A DNA stretch of 5,787 bases from a virus (taxonomy: Duplodnaviria > Heunggongvirae > Uroviricota > Caudoviricetes), in IMG/VR virus record IMGVR_UViG_2690316210_000008; one strand, 5' to 3'. Below, piece by piece: positions 110-5,787 of the stretch. The notes under the pieces are model-generated. The model worked only from the letters and a program-made list of their open reading frames with translations, did no database searches and had not been told where the DNA came from. The translations under genes and the position numbers were made by a program. The first letter of the stretch is position 1. Each line of letters opens with the position of its first letter.

Positions 110-1401
110 CTAATGCCGATGCTAAAATTGATGCAATGCACAAGCAAATCACTACCGAAACAGGTAAAACCGTTCAAGCCTCAGCCGATACTCTCAAGAG
201 TCTGATTGCTACCAGTGAGCAAGCTAGCTCAACTAAGATTGATCAGGTTAAAGCTGAACTGAAAGGCGATATCACCAAAGAAGTTAGCGCCTCCGCTACT
301 ACCCTGAAACAAGCAATTGCTACCAGTGAGGCAGCAAGCGCAAGCAAGATTGATCAAGTTCGGGTAGAAATGGATGGCAAGATTGCTGGTGTGAATCAGG
401 AAGCAGATGTAAAAATCGATGCTTTGAAGGGAACCATTAACAGCAAATATAATCTGGCAGTTAATGCAGATGGTCGCGTGGCTGGTATTCACATGAGCGC
501 AACCAACGATCCGGCGCAACCGACGAGAATCATCTTTAATGCTGATAAAATCGCGGTAGCTCCACAGAACGGGTCGGGGGTATGTCCGTTTGGTATCGAA
601 GGTAACAAGGTTTATCTCGATAATGCCATGATTCGTAATGCTGCAATTGGTACAGCCCAGATTAATGATGCGGCGATTACCACGGCTAAAATCGGCAATG
701 CTGCAATTAACAGCGCGAAGATTCAGGACGGGGCAATCACTAATGCCAAGATCGTAAACGGTGCAATTGATAACGCTAAAATCGGTAACTATATCCAGTC
801 TTCCAACTGGAATGGATCTACCGGATGGCATATCAACAAGAATGGCTCTGCTACGTTCATGAACGCAACCGTTAAAGGTAATATCACGGCTGATTCTGGT
901 ACTCTGAACAACGTCACGATTAACTCTAGCTGTGTTATTAAGGGTATGCTTGAAGCTACTCAGGTTAAGGGTGATTTCGTTAAGGTGATTGGTCGTAAGT
1001 TCCCGCACCGTGATGTTAACGTTGATAATGGTTATGCTGGCTATCCACAAGGTACAGTGACCGTTCGCGTTGAAGATGATCACAAGTTCGATCGTCAAAT
1101 CGTTATTCCGGCAATTAGTTTTGGTGGATTGCGAGCGCGTGAAGGGTCGAACGGTAATACGTTTTACGACACCTGTCGCCTTATTGTTCGTAAGAATGGG
1201 TCAGAGTTGTATAATAGGGCTTATGGCGGCAATACTGGTCTTTACTCTGGTGTTATTGATATGCCAGCGGGTAAGGGTGCTGTAACTCTAACGTTTGAAG
1301 TACACTCAAGCGCAATCAACAACTGGACGCCTAGCACATGGATCAGTGATTTAACTGTAATGGTAACTAAAAAAGCCACTACGGGTATTACTGTTTCTTA
1401 A
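73..1401 (+). CDS. Phage tail fibre / host-specificity (receptor-binding) protein, C-terminal portion; the listed GTG start at 73 lies inside the IS2 terminus, so the native gene is probably 5'-interrupted and native sequence begins about base 110
   Basis: Seen: 442-codon ORF ending TAA 1399-1401. It has two full 37-aa tandem repeats built around a KIDQV motif, five consecutive 10-aa repeats of form I-x-[ND]-[AG]-A-I-x-x-A-K (residues 187-236), and an N/G/T/S-rich C-terminal domain. Inference: this composition and repeat architecture is typical of phage tail fibres. Codons 1-12 are encoded by IS2-derived sequence and there is no Shine-Dalgarno before 73 or before the first in-frame ATG at 136. 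Confidence 0.7.
175..396 (+). repeat. Two tandem ~111-nt (37-codon) imperfect direct repeats inside the tail-fibre gene, with partial units flanking (about 124-420)
   Basis: Seen: AAGATTGAT (K-I-D) recurs at 235-243 and 346-354, exactly 111 nt apart, within aligned units ...[20 protein letters not shown]... and ...[20 protein letters not shown]...; further KID motifs at codons 18 and 114. Confidence 0.8.
631..789 (+). repeat. Five tandem 30-nt (10-codon) repeats encoding I-x-[ND]-[AG]-A-I-x-x-A-K inside the tail-fibre gene
   Basis: Seen in translation: [10 protein letters not shown] / [10 protein letters not shown] / [10 protein letters not shown] / [10 protein letters not shown] / [10 protein letters not shown], then IGN. 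Confidence 0.8.
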
Positions 1402-1507: not shown

Positions 1508-1786
1508 ATGACTGAAATTATATATGGCGGTATCGGTGTTATCGCCTTAATTTGTGGTGGATTATGGAGACTTCACCGAAATCAATTAGCCACAGAAAAT
1601 AGATTGTCGAAATTAGAATCCAATGATGCATTGTTTAATCAGAAGTTTGAAACAATGCAGAATAACCACGATCAGATATCCGAGAGAGTTTATCGCATGG
1701 AACAAACCCTTCACGGTATAGAAAAGAAAGTGGTTGCGATGGACGCTAAATTTGACCAAGTTATCGATTTACTCAGACAAAAATAA
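1508..1786 (+). CDS. Small membrane protein with one N-terminal transmembrane helix and a coiled-coil domain (92 aa); possibly a spanin-like or holin-accessory lysis protein
   Basis: Seen: ATG 1508 preceded by GGGGG (1499-1503). Hydrophobic stretch IIYGGIGVIALICGGLW, then a charged heptad-like segment (LSKLESNDALFNQKFETMQNNHDQISERVYRMEQTLHGIEKKVVAMDAKFDQVIDLL). Inference: this topology resembles i-spanins or antiholins; no sequence-level match was recognised. Confidence 0.6.
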   Translation: MTEIIYGGIGVIALICGGLWRLHRNQLATENRLSKLESNDALFNQKFETMQNNHDQISERVYRMEQTLHGIEKKVVAMDAKFDQVIDLLRQK

Positions 1787-1805
1787 TAATAAAAGGGGTG
1801 AATAT

Positions 1806-1976
1806 ATGAAGAATAAACTTAAGAAATATTTTGGTTATCTCTTGATTGTCGCCCTCACTTATAACGTAGCAATCAGACCTCTGCTTACGTCCTTTGGGCT
1901 TAATCTTCCGGCAATGTCCGTTGATGATGAATTGCTCAGGATGATAGCGGGGGTCTTTTCGTTATTAGGGGGATAA
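1806..1976 (+). CDS. Small hydrophobic membrane protein (56 aa); holin candidate
   Basis: Seen: ATG 1806 with Shine-Dalgarno AGGGGTG (1792-1798); the longer track ORF from 1734 would need a TTG start inside the previous gene. Hydrophobic segments YFGYLLIVALTYNVAI and LLRMIAGVFSLLGG. Stop TAA 1974-1976 sits 1 nt before the next ATG. Confidence 0.55.
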   Translation: MKNKLKKYFGYLLIVALTYNVAIRPLLTSFGLNLPAMSVDDELLRMIAGVFSLLGG

Positions 1977-1977
1977 C

Positions 1978-2661
1978 ATGGCAATCAGTACCAATAAACG
2001 AAACGCTCTAAGGACTAAGAAAGCGTTACGGCAATGGACTGATAAGGCAACCGATACATTCGAAAAGGCGATAGGGGAAGGGGCGATCTTTGCTGCTCGC
2101 GCACTCCAGAAGAAGATTAACAAGAATGTTGATAGACCTACTCGCTGGACTCAGCAAGCTGTAGGTAATACCAACTACAAGAACCGGTCAGGGACCAGAC
2201 ACCAAATCTTCATCAAGGGCGCAAGGGATAAGGACAAGAAGATCGGGAGTCAGGATGACTATCTGAAACACTATTTCGATGGTGGCAAAATCAATAAGCT
2301 AGTGCCAATCGCTAACGGCAAGGTCTTAGACTCCCACGGGAACATTAAGGCCATCAAAGGCGGTAAGATGATGCGTAACATCGAAAACGGCAACTTCATC
2401 AAGATAGAGAACAAGGAAGGGACTTTTATCATGAAGAAGTATAAGCCTAAGAAATCCCGAACCAAACGCGCTAGGAATGGATCGGCGGTGGCAAAACGTC
2501 GCTTAGAGAAACGCACACAGAAACAGAGTAAGCGAATTGTTGCCGTTAAGTCGGATAAAATTTCTACTCGTTATTCGACGCTAGGATCGTGGGAAAGCAA
2601 CGAAGTAATGATGCTTAAGAATATCAATAAGCACATTAAATCACGCATGAAATACGTTTAA
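1978..2661 (+). CDS. Highly basic Lys/Arg/Asn-rich hypothetical protein (227 aa), with an especially basic stretch near the C-terminus (KKYKPKKSRTKRARNGSAVAKRRLEKRTQKQSKR); possible nucleic-acid-binding or virion-internal protein
   Basis: Seen: ATG 1978 preceded by GGGGG (1967-1971); stop TAA 2659-2661; no cysteine; no hydrophobic segment. The function is inferred from composition only. Confidence 0.6.
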   Translation: MAISTNKRNALRTKKALRQWTDKATDTFEKAIGEGAIFAARALQKKINKNVDRPTRWTQQAVGNTNYKNRSGTRHQIFIKGARDKDKKIGSQDDYLKHYFDGGKINKLVPIANGKVLDSHGNIKAIKGGKMMRNIENGNFIKIENKEGTFIMKKYKPKKSRTKRARNGSAVAKRRLEKRTQKQSKRIVAVKSDKISTRYSTLGSWESNEVMMLKNINKHIKSRMKYV

Positions 2662-2671
2662 TCCATAAATA

Positions 2672-2696
2672 CCCTCATAAGAATCTTATGGGGGGG
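2672..2696 (+). promoter_or_regulatory. Stem-loop overlapping the Shine-Dalgarno of the following gene (possible translational control or RNA processing site)
   Basis: Seen: CCCTCATAAG (2672-2681) pairs with CTTATGGGGG (2685-2694), a 10-bp stem with one G-U pair and a 3-nt loop. The stem includes G2691-2694 of the GGGGGG Shine-Dalgarno (2691-2696) for ATG 2703. No T-run follows, so it is not a terminator. Confidence 0.35.
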
Positions 2697-2702
2697 TATA
2701 AC

Positions 2703-3050
2703 ATGGCTAAAAATATTTTCACTGAATTTCCTACTTATCCGGTCGATCAGCTTTCCGGTATTTTTATTAATGGCATTAGCCCTGAATCAATGACCTATGA
2801 TTTTGAGGCGAAGAGAGTCCAACATAAACAATTCAAGCAGATGATCCGCGATGATGGTAATGGGCTAGTGTTTTGTGTTGCGACACTCGCTAAACGTCCT
2901 AAGTATCGCTTTCGTGTAGGGCAGGAGATTGATGTAGTTAATCCTTACAACTTCAATTGTATTGGCGATGCACGAGCGGTATGTGTAGGCACAACTAACT
3001 ACTATATCAAGGGACTCCGCTTTACCGGGTATCTCTTCCAGTACCTTTAA
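2703..3050 (+). CDS. Hypothetical protein (115 aa), no recognisable domain
   Basis: Seen: ATG 2703 with GGGGGG 6 nt upstream is preferred over the track start at ATG 2688, which has no Shine-Dalgarno. Stop TAA 3048-3050. Protein MAKNIFTEFPTYPVDQLSGIF... has no motif I recognise. Confidence 0.55.
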   Translation: MAKNIFTEFPTYPVDQLSGIFINGISPESMTYDFEAKRVQHKQFKQMIRDDGNGLVFCVATLAKRPKYRFRVGQEIDVVNPYNFNCIGDARAVCVGTTNYYIKGLRFTGYLFQYL

Positions 3051-3059
3051 GGGGGTAAT

Positions 3060-3413
3060 ATGATCTCTCGTTACTTTCGACGTAAAGAATTTGAATGCAA
3101 ATGTGGGAAGTGCGGACAGGATACCGTAGACGCTGAATTACTGGCAATTCTTGAGGATGTACGCGAATACTTCGGGAAACCAGTAGTTATTAACAGTGCT
3201 AACCGTTGTCCGGCACACAATAAGAAAGTTGGTGGCGCTTCTCGTTCGATTCATATCACGGGCAAGGTCGCAGATATTGTAGTGAAAGGTGTCTCTCCTG
3301 ATATCGTTCACTCTTATCTTGATAGCAAATATCCCGATCAGTATGGTTTAGGCAAATACAAAACCTTTACGCATATCGATTCTAGAGGATATAAGGCTAG
3401 ATGGAATGGATAA
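3060..3413 (+). CDS. Zinc metallopeptidase of the peptidase M15 (M15A/DUF882-like) family; probable phage endolysin (peptidoglycan peptidase)
   Basis: Seen: ATG 3060 preceded by GGGGG (3051-3055). Motifs RRKEFECKCGKCG near the N-terminus, SIHITGKVAD (His-x6-Asp) and THID. Established: H-x6-D plus a downstream H-x-D/H is the zinc-binding signature of M15 peptidases, a family that includes phage endolysins. No signal peptide is evident, so export would need a holin. Confidence 0.8.
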   Translation: MISRYFRRKEFECKCGKCGQDTVDAELLAILEDVREYFGKPVVINSANRCPAHNKKVGGASRSIHITGKVADIVVKGVSPDIVHSYLDSKYPDQYGLGKYKTFTHIDSRGYKARWNG

Positions 3414-4106
3414 AATTAAAGCGCCTCTAGTGGGCGCTTTTTTGTTTTTTTCACGAGGCTGTTTACACGCAGATTGCCATGTACTTACAACAATCAGGCG
3501 ATCGCCTACATGCTTACTAGTACCACTCATGATAGTATGAATTGCCTCATAAGGAAACTGGCGATAATCAACAAAATCATCACGCATTTGCAGCACTAGC
3601 GACGTGGTAGGAACGATGATCAGCACTTTCCCTTCATAGTTCTCTAAGTACCAGCGAGACAACATACAAGCAATCGCAGATTTACCAGCGGACGTAGGCA
3701 AAACTAACATTCCACGTTTATGATGAATACCTTCAAAGACAGCCTTTGATTGATACCAATGCGGGGTGATCCTGTTAGCACCGGAATATAATTCCAGATC
3801 ATTACACCATTTTGTAATTTCTTCTTCTGTAACTTGTTCTTTTTCGAATAAGCGAGGGTCTACCCATACGCTATATCCCATATTTTTAGCGAAGATTCCC
3901 ACGGTTTTAGTTAGGCCGATTGGTAGTCTATTTTCATAGGTAAAAAGTCTTATGCGACCATCCCAATTGGAATACTTAAATTTTTTGCTAAATCTAGCTC
4001 CCTCAACTTCAAAGGAAAAGTAATCCCTTAGTTCCATCGCTATAGAATCAGAGCAATCAATTTTAACGAAACTATAGTCTTGAAAATGAATTTTAATATC
4101 TGGCAT
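3348..4106 (-). pseudogene. uvsW: N-terminal ~220 codons of a T4 UvsW-type SF2 DNA helicase, truncated after motifs I and Ia; the final ~33 codons are unrelated read-through into the antisense of the terminator and endolysin 3' end
   Basis: Seen: P-loop motif LPTSAGKS and motif Ia VLIIVPTTSL are present, but no DExH box or later motifs; the ORF ends ...STWQSACKQPRE then KNKKAPTRGALILSIPSSLISSRIDMRKGFVFA*. Recalled: the N-terminus (MPDIKIHFQDYSFVKIDC...WDGRIRL...PHWYQ..AVFEG) closely parallels T4 UvsW as I remember it, where DECH follows roughly 10 residues after KQPKEW. The likely start is ATG 4104-4106 (Shine-Dalgarno GGAG 8 nt upstream, overlapping the upstream stop as TAATG), not the track's GTG at 4115. 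Confidence 0.7.
3418..3450 (+). terminator. Strong rho-independent terminator after the peptidase gene, likely bidirectional
   Basis: Seen: AAAGCGCC (3418-3425), 7-nt loop TCTAGTG, GGCGCTTT (3433-3440), then TTTTTTGTTTTTTT to 3450. On the minus strand the same hairpin is followed by TTTAATTTTAT. Confidence 0.8.
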
Positions 4107-4675
4107 TAGTTCCACTCCACACTTGCAATATTCTTGATGTTATTCACTTCCTTCTCATTGAAAACGAATGTCTCTGTTTTGCCGTATTCAATCCCGCCTA
4201 TACCTACATCCAGTAATCTCTTGATTGCTCTTTCAGTGGCTAGTGCATGTTTCATTGATGGCATTTCACCAGCGTAGACAATATCAAAGTTATGACCGGG
4301 ATTGCGTACACCCAGATTAATGCGTCGCTTGATGATTGACTTTGTTACACCAAATTTACCAATATCCCCTGATTTCATTACATAGAGATAAGGCACACCC
4401 GCTTTATATTGAAAGTAATCACTTTTGAGACAAGCACAGCGTTTACCTTCATTAAGCAGGTTAGTAGCTGATTTGTCGGCTCTATTACCACATCGGGTAC
4501 ATGTAAGAGCAATTCTTGAATGAAGCCCTTTAAACTCACCCAGAAAGCCATGAAAGACTAACGGTAAGTCATTATCTTTGATGTGAGTCAGAATGCGTTG
4601 TTCTAATGCCGATGGAGTTACAGCACGGGAGGATTTAGGAGTAAAAACAATATCTTTAGCCATTACTGGAATCAT
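4106..4675 (-). CDS. Protein with a Cys-rich zinc-ribbon-like segment and a C-terminal T5orf172/GIY-YIG-superfamily-like domain (189 aa); homing-endonuclease-like selfish gene candidate
   Basis: Seen: ATG 4673-4675 with GAGGT 4 nt upstream; stop TAA 4106-4108. Motifs C-x2-C-x16-C-x-C (CTRCGN...KRCAC) and YLYVMKSGDIGKFGVT...RR. Inference: the Y-hydrophobic ... K-F/I-G-V-T ... R pattern resembles the T5orf172 (GIY-YIG clan) domain. The N-terminus (AKDI.F ... GFLGEFKG) is paralogous to the gene at 4831. Confidence 0.65.
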   Translation of the reverse strand: MIPVMAKDIVFTPKSSRAVTPSALEQRILTHIKDNDLPLVFHGFLGEFKGLHSRIALTCTRCGNRADKSATNLLNEGKRCACLKSDYFQYKAGVPYLYVMKSGDIGKFGVTKSIIKRRINLGVRNPGHNFDIVYAGEMPSMKHALATERAIKRLLDVGIGGIEYGKTETFVFNEKEVNNIKNIASVEWN

Positions 4676-4830
4676 ATAGACCTCACTTTTTTAACTTATA
4701 GGCATAACCTCAATATGGTTGGTTTGTAACATTAGGGTCGCATATTATACACATCCAGATAGAGAATGCAATAGCAAGACAATTTTCTCTAATAAATAGT
4801 AGTGAGCTTATTATTTTAGAGGAAACTACT
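4676..4830. promoter_or_regulatory. 155-bp AT-rich divergent intergenic region, presumed to hold promoters for both flanking genes
   Basis: Seen: no ORF; the flanking genes diverge. Candidate -10-like hexamers are present (TATTAT 4743-4748, ATAAAT 4792-4797) but I could not pair them convincingly with -35 elements. Shine-Dalgarno AGAGGA (4818-4823) precedes ATG 4831. Confidence 0.3.
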
Positions 4831-5787
4831 ATGAAACTAGCATTTGCCAAAGATATTGATTTTGTTAAAAGAACGAATGGAAAATCACCTTTAGAGATAG
4901 AACAAGAGATAATCGATAAGGTGTCGCCAACCGGATTAATCTATTCAGGATTAATTCTTCCCTTCAAAGGTAGTATGGGTAAGTATCGCGTAACTCACCC
5001 AGACACAGGGGAGTTTAAGGATTATGCAATTAAGCATTTCAATAACTTCACCGGAACAGAATTGTTTTCTACCGAAAAGGCCGCATTAGTCTCGATTAAA
5101 AGGAAGTGCGAGAAATTAGGGAAAGAATTTATAGAATGGGATGGAGGCTGGAAAGGATTTGCAAAAACCAAAGCCGTGATTATGTGCAAAGAGCATGACA
5201 GAACATTAAACCCAAAACTGGTTTATGCACTAAAAGATGATGTTCCTTTGGCGTGTTCCGGTTGTCGCGGCGATACTGTGCACAAGAAATCTAATGGCGG
5301 TAAGACTAGACATGAAGTAAGACAGGAAAAACAAGCAATCATCGAATCCCGTTGCGAAAAGATGAATTACACTTTCAAGGGATTCTCCGGTGATTTACGG
5401 TACTCATATGCAACAAAATTCGTTATTCACTGCAACAAGCATAATGTTACATGGGAATCAACGAAATGCACTATCCATAAGTTTACTTGCCCCGAATGCA
5501 GAAAAGAACAGTTGATTCAGCTTTCCAACCGTACATACACTGATAAGGCTAATTTCTATATTCAATTATTAGATGACAAATTTATTAAATTTGGTGTTAC
5601 CACACGAGATATTAAAATCAGGATGTATGAGCAAACCAGAAAGAGCAATTTTAACCATAAATTAATCTTCCTTCATGAGTTCGCGGAAGGATGGAAAGCA
5701 TTAGACCTAGAGCATGAAGTAAAACAACGCTTTATGAAGTGGTCAACAAAAACTGGCCACCGAGTTAGAGTTTTTCCAGTATCGATT
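4831..5787 (+). CDS. Protein with two Cys/His zinc-ribbon repeats and a T5orf172/GIY-YIG-like domain, paralogous to the minus-strand gene at 4106-4675; 3' end beyond the window
   Basis: Seen: I translated ATG 4831 through base 5787, 319 sense codons with no stop. The supplied ORF track omits it because the ORF runs off the window. Shine-Dalgarno AGAGGA 7 nt upstream. Two repeats ([KR]CEK..., C-x2-H-x15-20-C-x2-C): CKEHDRTLNPKLVYALKDDVPLACSGC and CNKHNVTWESTKCTIHKFTCPEC. Then FYIQLLDDKFIKFGVTTRDIKIR..., which is T5orf172-like. The N-terminus (AKDIDF ... GLILPFKG) aligns with the minus-strand paralogue. Confidence 0.75.
   Translation, partial: MKLAFAKDIDFVKRTNGKSPLEIEQEIIDKVSPTGLIYSGLILPFKGSMGKYRVTHPDTGEFKDYAIKHFNNFTGTELFSTEKAALVSIKRKCEKLGKEFIEWDGGWKGFAKTKAVIMCKEHDRTLNPKLVYALKDDVPLACSGCRGDTVHKKSNGGKTRHEVRQEKQAIIESRCEKMNYTFKGFSGDLRYSYATKFVIHCNKHNVTWESTKCTIHKFTCPECRKEQLIQLSNRTYTDKANFYIQLLDDKFIKFGVTTRDIKIRMYEQTRKSNFNHKLIFLHEFAEGWKALDLEHEVKQRFMKWSTKTGHRVRVFPVSI

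Follow-up and report, generated by a model that had tools for sequence, protein, structure and literature searches.

Does the tail fibre gene at this locus carry DNA tandem arrays that alter its length at present, or repeats that belong to the architecture of the protein and are old? A sequence-only reading had favoured the former. It described two distinct arrays inside the tail fibre, one with a period of 111 nt (37 aa) around KIDQV motifs and one with a period of 30 nt (10 aa), and it proposed that close DNA similarity of the 111-nt units reflected recent duplication and that slippage in such arrays could change fibre length and host range. From the results described here, we consider it highly probable that both periodicities are ancient structural repeats of a lambda-J-type central fibre protein, and not currently unstable DNA tandem repeats.

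The fibre gene and its interruption by IS2

The window, by which we mean the whole stretch of 5787 bases that was analysed, is the complete contig CXAQ01000190.1 of a Shigella sonnei draft genome (assembly GCA_001261215.1). The first base of the contig is already within IS2, and the left part of the window is organised as follows.

1-109, + strand: right end of IS2, with the 3' end of insD (stop codon at 70-72) and the terminal inverted repeat, which ends ...GGGGCAAATCCA at 109
110-1401, + strand: 3' part left of a lambda-J-like gene for the central tail fibre (tip attachment protein), with codons ~829-1258 of 1258 and the stop codon
1420-1455, + strand: terminator-like hairpin (intrinsic type) after the fibre gene, with a 16-pair stem followed by a T run

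Bases 1-109 match IS2/insD in phage records with 99.1% identity, and similarity to the intact fibre alleles starts exactly at base 110, so that the junction is placed at 109/110. An open reading frame of 442 codons extends from a GTG at 73 to 1401. This GTG falls in the IS2 terminal repeat, with the insD stop lying in the same frame, and because the reading frame opens inside IS2, the true fibre sequence is 110-1401. This sequence is 100% identical to 4239-5530 of an E. coli contig (L002), which are the last 1292 bases of an intact gene of 1258 codons. The match places the IS2 insertion after approximately codon 828, and the remnant consists of the last 430 codons. The N-terminal hub and FNIII domains, which seat the protein in the tail tip, are absent from the window, where homology begins at about codon 829. 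In our proposal, the insertion would have separated these domains from the remnant. Anchorage in the tail tip is provided by the 828 codons cut off by IS2, so that the remnant cannot be assembled into a tail.

The window copy is a pseudogene, the truncated form of a lambda-J-like fibre gene, and the ancestral gene is a member of that group. The repeats do lie in the shaft of a tail fibre gene, as had been stated; what the window holds of that gene is only the IS2-truncated 3' remnant. A role in host range does not apply to this genome, because the gene is inactivated in it. A weaker possibility, suggested by the likeness of the remnant to the soluble receptor-binding gpJ713 fragment of lambda, is that the remnant might block the receptor if it is still expressed.

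The junction itself was considered as a possible assembly artefact. This was rejected, as contigs from three other assemblies begin at the IS2-fibre junction: two Logan contigs (L004 and L005) keep the last 28 nt of IS2, and an NCBI contig starts 3 nt past IS2. The recurrence in other assemblies indicates that the junction is real and carried by a lineage. A search of the plasmid collection gave zero matches. Separately, the same fibre gene is independently truncated by IS903B in E. coli PSJ-07 (L010; NZ_AP027619.1, 1-925), where the cut corresponds to approximately nt 400 of the window, within the third KID unit.

Judging from sequence and model comparisons, the gene is a phage tail fibre gene of the lambda-J central fibre type. 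In Pfam, the Ig_GpJ_C receptor-binding domain of the tip attachment protein J (PF12421) matched residues 307-442 of the open reading frame with an E value of 2.1e-34 (119 bits; cut-off 26.2), and the Phage_Tail_Tip core (PF09327, formerly DUF1983) matched with 1.6e-22 (80 bits; cut-off 22). Tail-fibre and central-tail-fibre-J families matched in PHROGs. The C-terminal 190 residues retrieved A8 gpJ (E 2.6e-54) and lambda gpJ (E 1.1e-37) in a PDB sequence search, and the shaft and core retrieved T1 gp33 (9L9P chain S), the 'J-like tail tip protein gp24' (23GD) and the F2 pyocin fibre (25VF_A). When the AF2 model was searched with Foldseek, the four best matches were all gpJ central fibres, with E values of 1e-18 to 1e-20.

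Upstream of the part that remains in the window, Phage-tail_3 and fn3 match the intact L002 allele weakly (E 8e-4, below the cut-offs), and Phage-tail_3 matches P0121, a representative with 68% identity, at 27.7 bits, above the cut-off of 23. In the relatives L001 and L002, though not in the window, the fibre gene is seen to close a siphovirus tail-tip block, and it is preceded by the tail tube gene, a 2.4-kb gene and DTP-pb9-like, Gp84_N-like and DUF6950 genes. With regard to the receptor-binding domain, we observed that it is clearly nearer to that of A8 gpJ, solved together with OmpC of E. coli EDL933 (9WCB), than to that of lambda gpJ, which is a hint that the intact alleles may use a porin different from LamB as their receptor.

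The remaining part of the window was inspected as well. The region 3' of the fibre gene, 1508-3413, contains two small membrane-protein-like reading frames (92 and 56 aa), a Peptidase_M15_3 endolysin, and reading frames of 227 aa (very basic) and 115 aa with zero family matches; it is probably a lysis module. A second terminator-like hairpin is located at 3418-3440. On the minus strand, 3348-4115 encodes only the 5' half of a UvsW-like helicase, consisting of UvsW_N and the start of the ResIII/DEAD domain. A stretch of 832 nt that the E. coli prophage L001 has at 15333-16164 is missing at 3446/3450 of the window, and the same deletion is found in L002, whose fibre gene is intact. The helicase fragment at 3451-4106 shows 85-96% DNA identity to uvsW of virulent RB49-like (Krischvirus) phages of the T4 type, and the occurrence of uvsW-like DNA in a chromosomal prophage points to exchange between temperate siphovirus-like prophages and lytic myoviruses. 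The start of the helicase gene is flanked by two genes with CapR and T5orf172 domains (4106-4675, minus strand; 4831-5787, plus strand, running off the contig), which match a PHROG named 'endonuclease' and a relative of which is named GIY-YIG nuclease in RefSeq; by these similarities they may be homing-endonuclease-like elements. Intact relatives such as L001 (E. coli 2017.18.04CC, 1-21800) are prophages in ycdX with a large serine recombinase, in which a gp38-like adhesin accompanies a tail-tip block of siphovirus type. For another relative (NZ_CP069522.1, hit H121), the annotation of this region includes a UvsY gene.

The two periodicities and the predicted fold

Within the remnant, the following segments were distinguished.

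124-234, + strand: 37-aa unit 1, within the predicted helix (residues 2-114, pLDDT 82-91)
235-345, + strand: 37-aa unit 2, with 56% nucleotide and 49% amino acid identity to unit 1; missing in the relatives P0121, L008 and L009
346-456, + strand: degenerate third unit, with 40-41% nucleotide identity to units 1 and 2; ends the shaft and leads into the beta core
457-618, + strand: non-repetitive Phage_Tail_Tip core (PF09327) between both arrays; aligns to T1 gp33, the F2 pyocin fibre and 23GD gp24
619-798, + strand: decapeptide array of six 30-nt units, the last degenerate, made of I-x-x-A-x pentad pairs; predicted short beta strands, pLDDT ~60
799-1398, + strand: neck and C-terminal receptor-binding domain (Ig_GpJ_C, PF12421); 48% identity to A8 gpJ over 182 aligned columns

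KID motifs start at nt 124, 235 and 346, and an additional one at 412. The in-register nucleotide identity at a lag of 111 was 0.56 over 124-345 and 0.49 over 124-456, compared with 0.30 in codon shuffles (z ~6), and none of the 500 shuffles attained the observed value at any in-frame lag. For the second array (619-789), the identity was 0.60 at lag 30 and 0.61 at lag 60, compared with 0.33 in shuffled sequences (z 6-6.6; 0 of 500). Autocorrelation at the protein level was equally clear for both. The two periodicities that had been reported were thus confirmed, the first over 124-456 and the second over approximately 619-798, where five good units are followed by the degenerate sixth.

What could not be upheld is the close similarity of the 111-nt units in DNA, and with it their recent duplication. 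Even the two full units are just 56% identical in DNA, the third is 16-24% identical to them in amino acids, and the longest exact run common to the units is 15 nt. The 30-nt units show a mean nucleotide identity of 55% (33-70%) with a longest common run of 12 nt. Tandem Repeats Finder reported no array in the fibre gene, even at a minimum score of 30. Conservation in the protein combined with weak similarity in DNA indicates that these are protein-level repeats and not DNA tandem arrays. The 111-nt array consists of two full units and a degenerate third rather than of a longer series. The head of unit 2 resembles that of unit 3 and its tail resembles that of unit 1, and the best 68-nt stretch (repeat D2, 205-272 versus 316-383) is 75% identical. 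From these alignments, unit 2 seems to have arisen by an old duplication of 111 nt, in register, which spanned the unit 1 tail and the unit 3 head. All 50 E. coli alleles that share unit 2 diverged after this duplication.

In the second array, hydrophobic residues recur with a period of 5.0 residues, which indicates that each decapeptide is a pair of I-x-x-A-x pentads. The array segment gives three matches to the PF09327 profile, at positions ~82-113, and from this threefold match the array is taken as an expanded version of the domain's tail end. The pentad motif occurs very widely: 7813 cluster representatives were found at E <0.001, with arrays of up to 76 uninterrupted pentads and proteins of up to 4696 aa.

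The AF2 model is of the monomer, built from an alignment of 30 sequences, and has a mean pLDDT of 68 and a pTM of 0.34. Residues 2-114 of the remnant were modelled as a single unbroken helix (pLDDT 82-91) that covers all KID units and ends at approximately nt 450, and residues 161-234, which cover the decapeptide array, were modelled as short strands (pLDDT ~60). Among the PDB sequence matches, there was no solved structure covering either repeat; for SU10 gp16, the middle part was modelled by AlphaFold, and the C-terminus of T1 gp33 is unresolved experimentally (PMC11945409). In lambda gpJ, the C-terminal order is FNIII, a three-helix alpha-helical segment (AHS), the beta-prism 'central straight fibre' (CSF) and the receptor-binding domain, and the AHS spans about 50 aa (residues 809-861) (PMC11101478). 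The corresponding AHS or shaft of the F-type pyocin fibre has been solved as a three-stranded coiled coil (PMC13455828). The stretch from W..QD to INSKY, which includes the shaft, is about 140 aa long in the window protein.

On this basis, we propose that the C-terminal third of the intact 1258-aa protein would run from a helical shaft through the beta core (PF09327) and the decapeptide beta array to the receptor-binding domain (PF12421). The 37-aa KID units would make up most of the shaft, for which a three-stranded alpha-helical coiled coil is expected in the trimer, and this shaft would be the counterpart of the lambda gpJ AHS and of the long shaft found in T1 gp33 as well as in the F-type pyocin fibre. 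The decapeptides would act as a spacer of beta structure by which the fibre is made longer between core and receptor-binding domain. Whereas the periodicity, the homology, the IS2 junction and the distribution of copy numbers are shown by the analysis, we infer the trimeric coiled-coil and beta-prism geometry, and likewise the effect of unit number on fibre length.

Unit number in relatives and the competing explanations

Of 5426 complete E. coli genomes, 57 have the fibre gene. Fifty of the 57 alleles (87.5-95.8% identical) aligned in one piece over 110-830 or 110-815, with equal spans and zero indels in up to 721 nt. Across the repeats, the Shigella contigs that carry the junction are 100% identical to the intact L002 allele, the set of identical contigs being L002, L004, L005 and L006. 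The six closest protein clusters have the same unit numbers as well, and the sole change affects P0001, where unit 2 has 4 aa deleted.

Differences in unit number appear at a greater distance. The shaft of P0121 measures 103 aa versus 140 aa, which is exactly one 37-aa unit fewer. Four E. coli alleles (L008, L009 and two L008-like alleles), whose shaft lengths were measured differently from that of P0121, are also without one 37-aa unit, and the unit left in L008 and L009 is 41 aa long. The alleles with a differing unit number are strongly diverged, with 30-56% nucleotide identity over 110-314, which indicates that the difference is old or was brought in by module exchange. For the spacer that contains the pentads, bounded by the conserved anchors VYL and IQSxNW, T1 gp33, the F2 pyocin fibre and 23GD gp24 each have a length of 18 aa, and other J-like proteins one of 38, 48, 58 (window) or 138 aa, so that these vary in steps of ten. 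Variation in copy number as such is therefore borne out across the family, in P0121, L008 and L009 as well as in the spacers, but it is confined to diverged relatives, and copy number is invariant in the 50 close alleles. Accordingly, our proposal is that whole units (37 or 33 aa, and 10 aa) would be gained or lost over long evolutionary distances, altering fibre length, while unit number would stay fixed among close alleles. Mosaic boundaries between alleles were located near 314-359, 700-760 and 980, and the conserved repeats may serve as crossover points for module exchange that leaves unit number unchanged.

These comparisons bear directly on the view that the repeats are recently duplicated DNA and act as hotspots of slipped-strand or unequal recombination that now vary fibre length and host range. 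Several observations agree with it: homologues differ in length by whole units, T1 gp33 carries two nearly identical 33-aa copies, so that duplication does happen in the family, and the breakpoints at ~314-359 and 700-760 are in or near the repeats. Against it stand the low identity of the units (55-56% in DNA, with short exact runs), the blank Tandem Repeats Finder result, the 50 alleles without an indel and the identity of the junction contigs with the intact L002 allele across the repeats. Besides, the variants in unit number are highly diverged around the very difference, and the gene is inactivated here by IS2. A present-day hotspot is thus largely refuted at this locus, and we regard it as extremely unlikely. 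The preferred reading, ancient structural repeats of a central fibre protein, leaves room for two further questions on how the repeats fold. [quoted passage not shown] In a 2026 preprint, the central fibre of the F7 pyocin is reported to have a coiled coil of 163 residues that becomes a beta-prism on cell contact. The preprint predicts such a switch for 21 out of 24 related central fibres from siphophages, among them those of the T1-like phages TLS and Shfl1, which have helical inserts of 33-40 aa (PMC12874032). Consistent with this, residues 27-178 of the query align to the distal shaft of the F2 pyocin fibre (1005-1154; E 1.2e-8), T1 gp33 aligns to the shaft as well (E 3.4e-14), the predicted helix end at residue ~114 coincides with the point where the alignment reaches the non-helical core of the pyocin fibre, and the shaft is rich in Ala, Ser and Thr. 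However, the published strand motif of the fold switch, SxSxxMxxLxS, occurs 7 times versus 5.4 expected from composition, a count reached by 29% of shuffles, and according to the same preprint lambda and T5 have no extensive switch (PMC12874032). For the truncated copy in the window the matter is moot. We consider a fold switch in the intact alleles a genuine possibility, albeit an unlikely one.

The other question is whether the decapeptide array folds as a pentapeptide-repeat (Rfr) domain of the classical kind, with a right-handed beta-helix that is four-sided and monomeric, instead of being part of a trimeric fibre prism. The hydrophobic period of 5.0 residues would fit such a domain, as would weak PDB matches to the pentapeptide proteins NP275 and NP276 (E 0.3-0.5) and the sub-threshold matches of long-array proteins with the same motif to Pentapeptide_4 and Decapeptide (PF25296). 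On the other hand, no pentapeptide (PF00805, PF13599) or decapeptide Pfam family matched the array segment of the window protein even at E 10, the segment matching PF09327 instead; the length steps are 10 aa, whereas one Rfr coil takes 20 aa; and the array, with a trimeric domain on either side, is placed on the three-fold axis of a fibre that is itself trimeric. An Rfr fold is accordingly very unlikely in our estimate. Finally, if the KID units of the intact alleles were refolding coiled-coil modules, gain and loss of units together with the 10-aa spacer steps might tune the firing stroke and the reach of a non-contractile tail; this extension by analogy to the pyocin fibre strikes us as quite improbable.

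Comparison with known fibres

The locus itself is of little consequence, as it contains ordinary building blocks of a known fibre family and the copy is a pseudogene. The quantised length steps, 10 aa for the beta spacer and 33-37 aa for the helical shaft, would be suitable units for engineering the length of J-type fibres or tailocins. In addition, since the shaft is homologous to the region for which the preprint reports a fold switch in F-type pyocins, the natural one-unit and two-unit alleles of E. coli prophages could be used to test that mechanism.

Lambda gpJ (8IYK, 8XCJ, 8XCK) and A8 gpJ (9WCA, 9WCB) share the same C-terminal order with the window protein, from helical shaft through PF09327 core to Ig_GpJ_C. 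Lambda gpJ, however, is without a decapeptide array between core and receptor-binding domain, and its shaft of ~50 aa contrasts with the ~140 aa from W..QD to INSKY in the window protein. For this reason, the transfer of structure from lambda is indirect. The window protein's receptor-binding domain is only 27-48% identical to those of lambda and A8 gpJ, and the window copy is without the first 828 residues.

T1 gp33 (9L9P chain S) is similar in other respects. It has approximately three copies of the shaft repeat motif IDQLKAQIGDDIQASLTDIREVIATETEALSRE, which is common to the window protein, and it has the same core and the same closing ...ITNAMIGNFIQSNNY motif. The units differ in length, being 33 aa in T1 gp33, where two are nearly identical, and 37 aa in the window. 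The pentad spacer is 18 aa in T1 gp33 versus 58 aa in the window, and the C-terminal domain differs.

The Pentapeptide_4 family (PF13599) and the Decapeptide repeat region (PF25296) show the same I/L-x-x-A-x pentad periodicity as the array in the window. Long-array proteins match these two families below the curated cut-offs, whereas the window protein does not match them. The F-type pyocin fibre (F2, 25VF; F7, PMC12874032) has a long helical shaft of three strands, after which come a beta-prism seed and a motif shared with the window protein (PMC13455828). The Ig_GpJ_C receptor-binding domain of the window protein is missing from the pyocin fibre. The pyocin shaft is a docking site for side fibres and, in F7, undergoes the change of fold.
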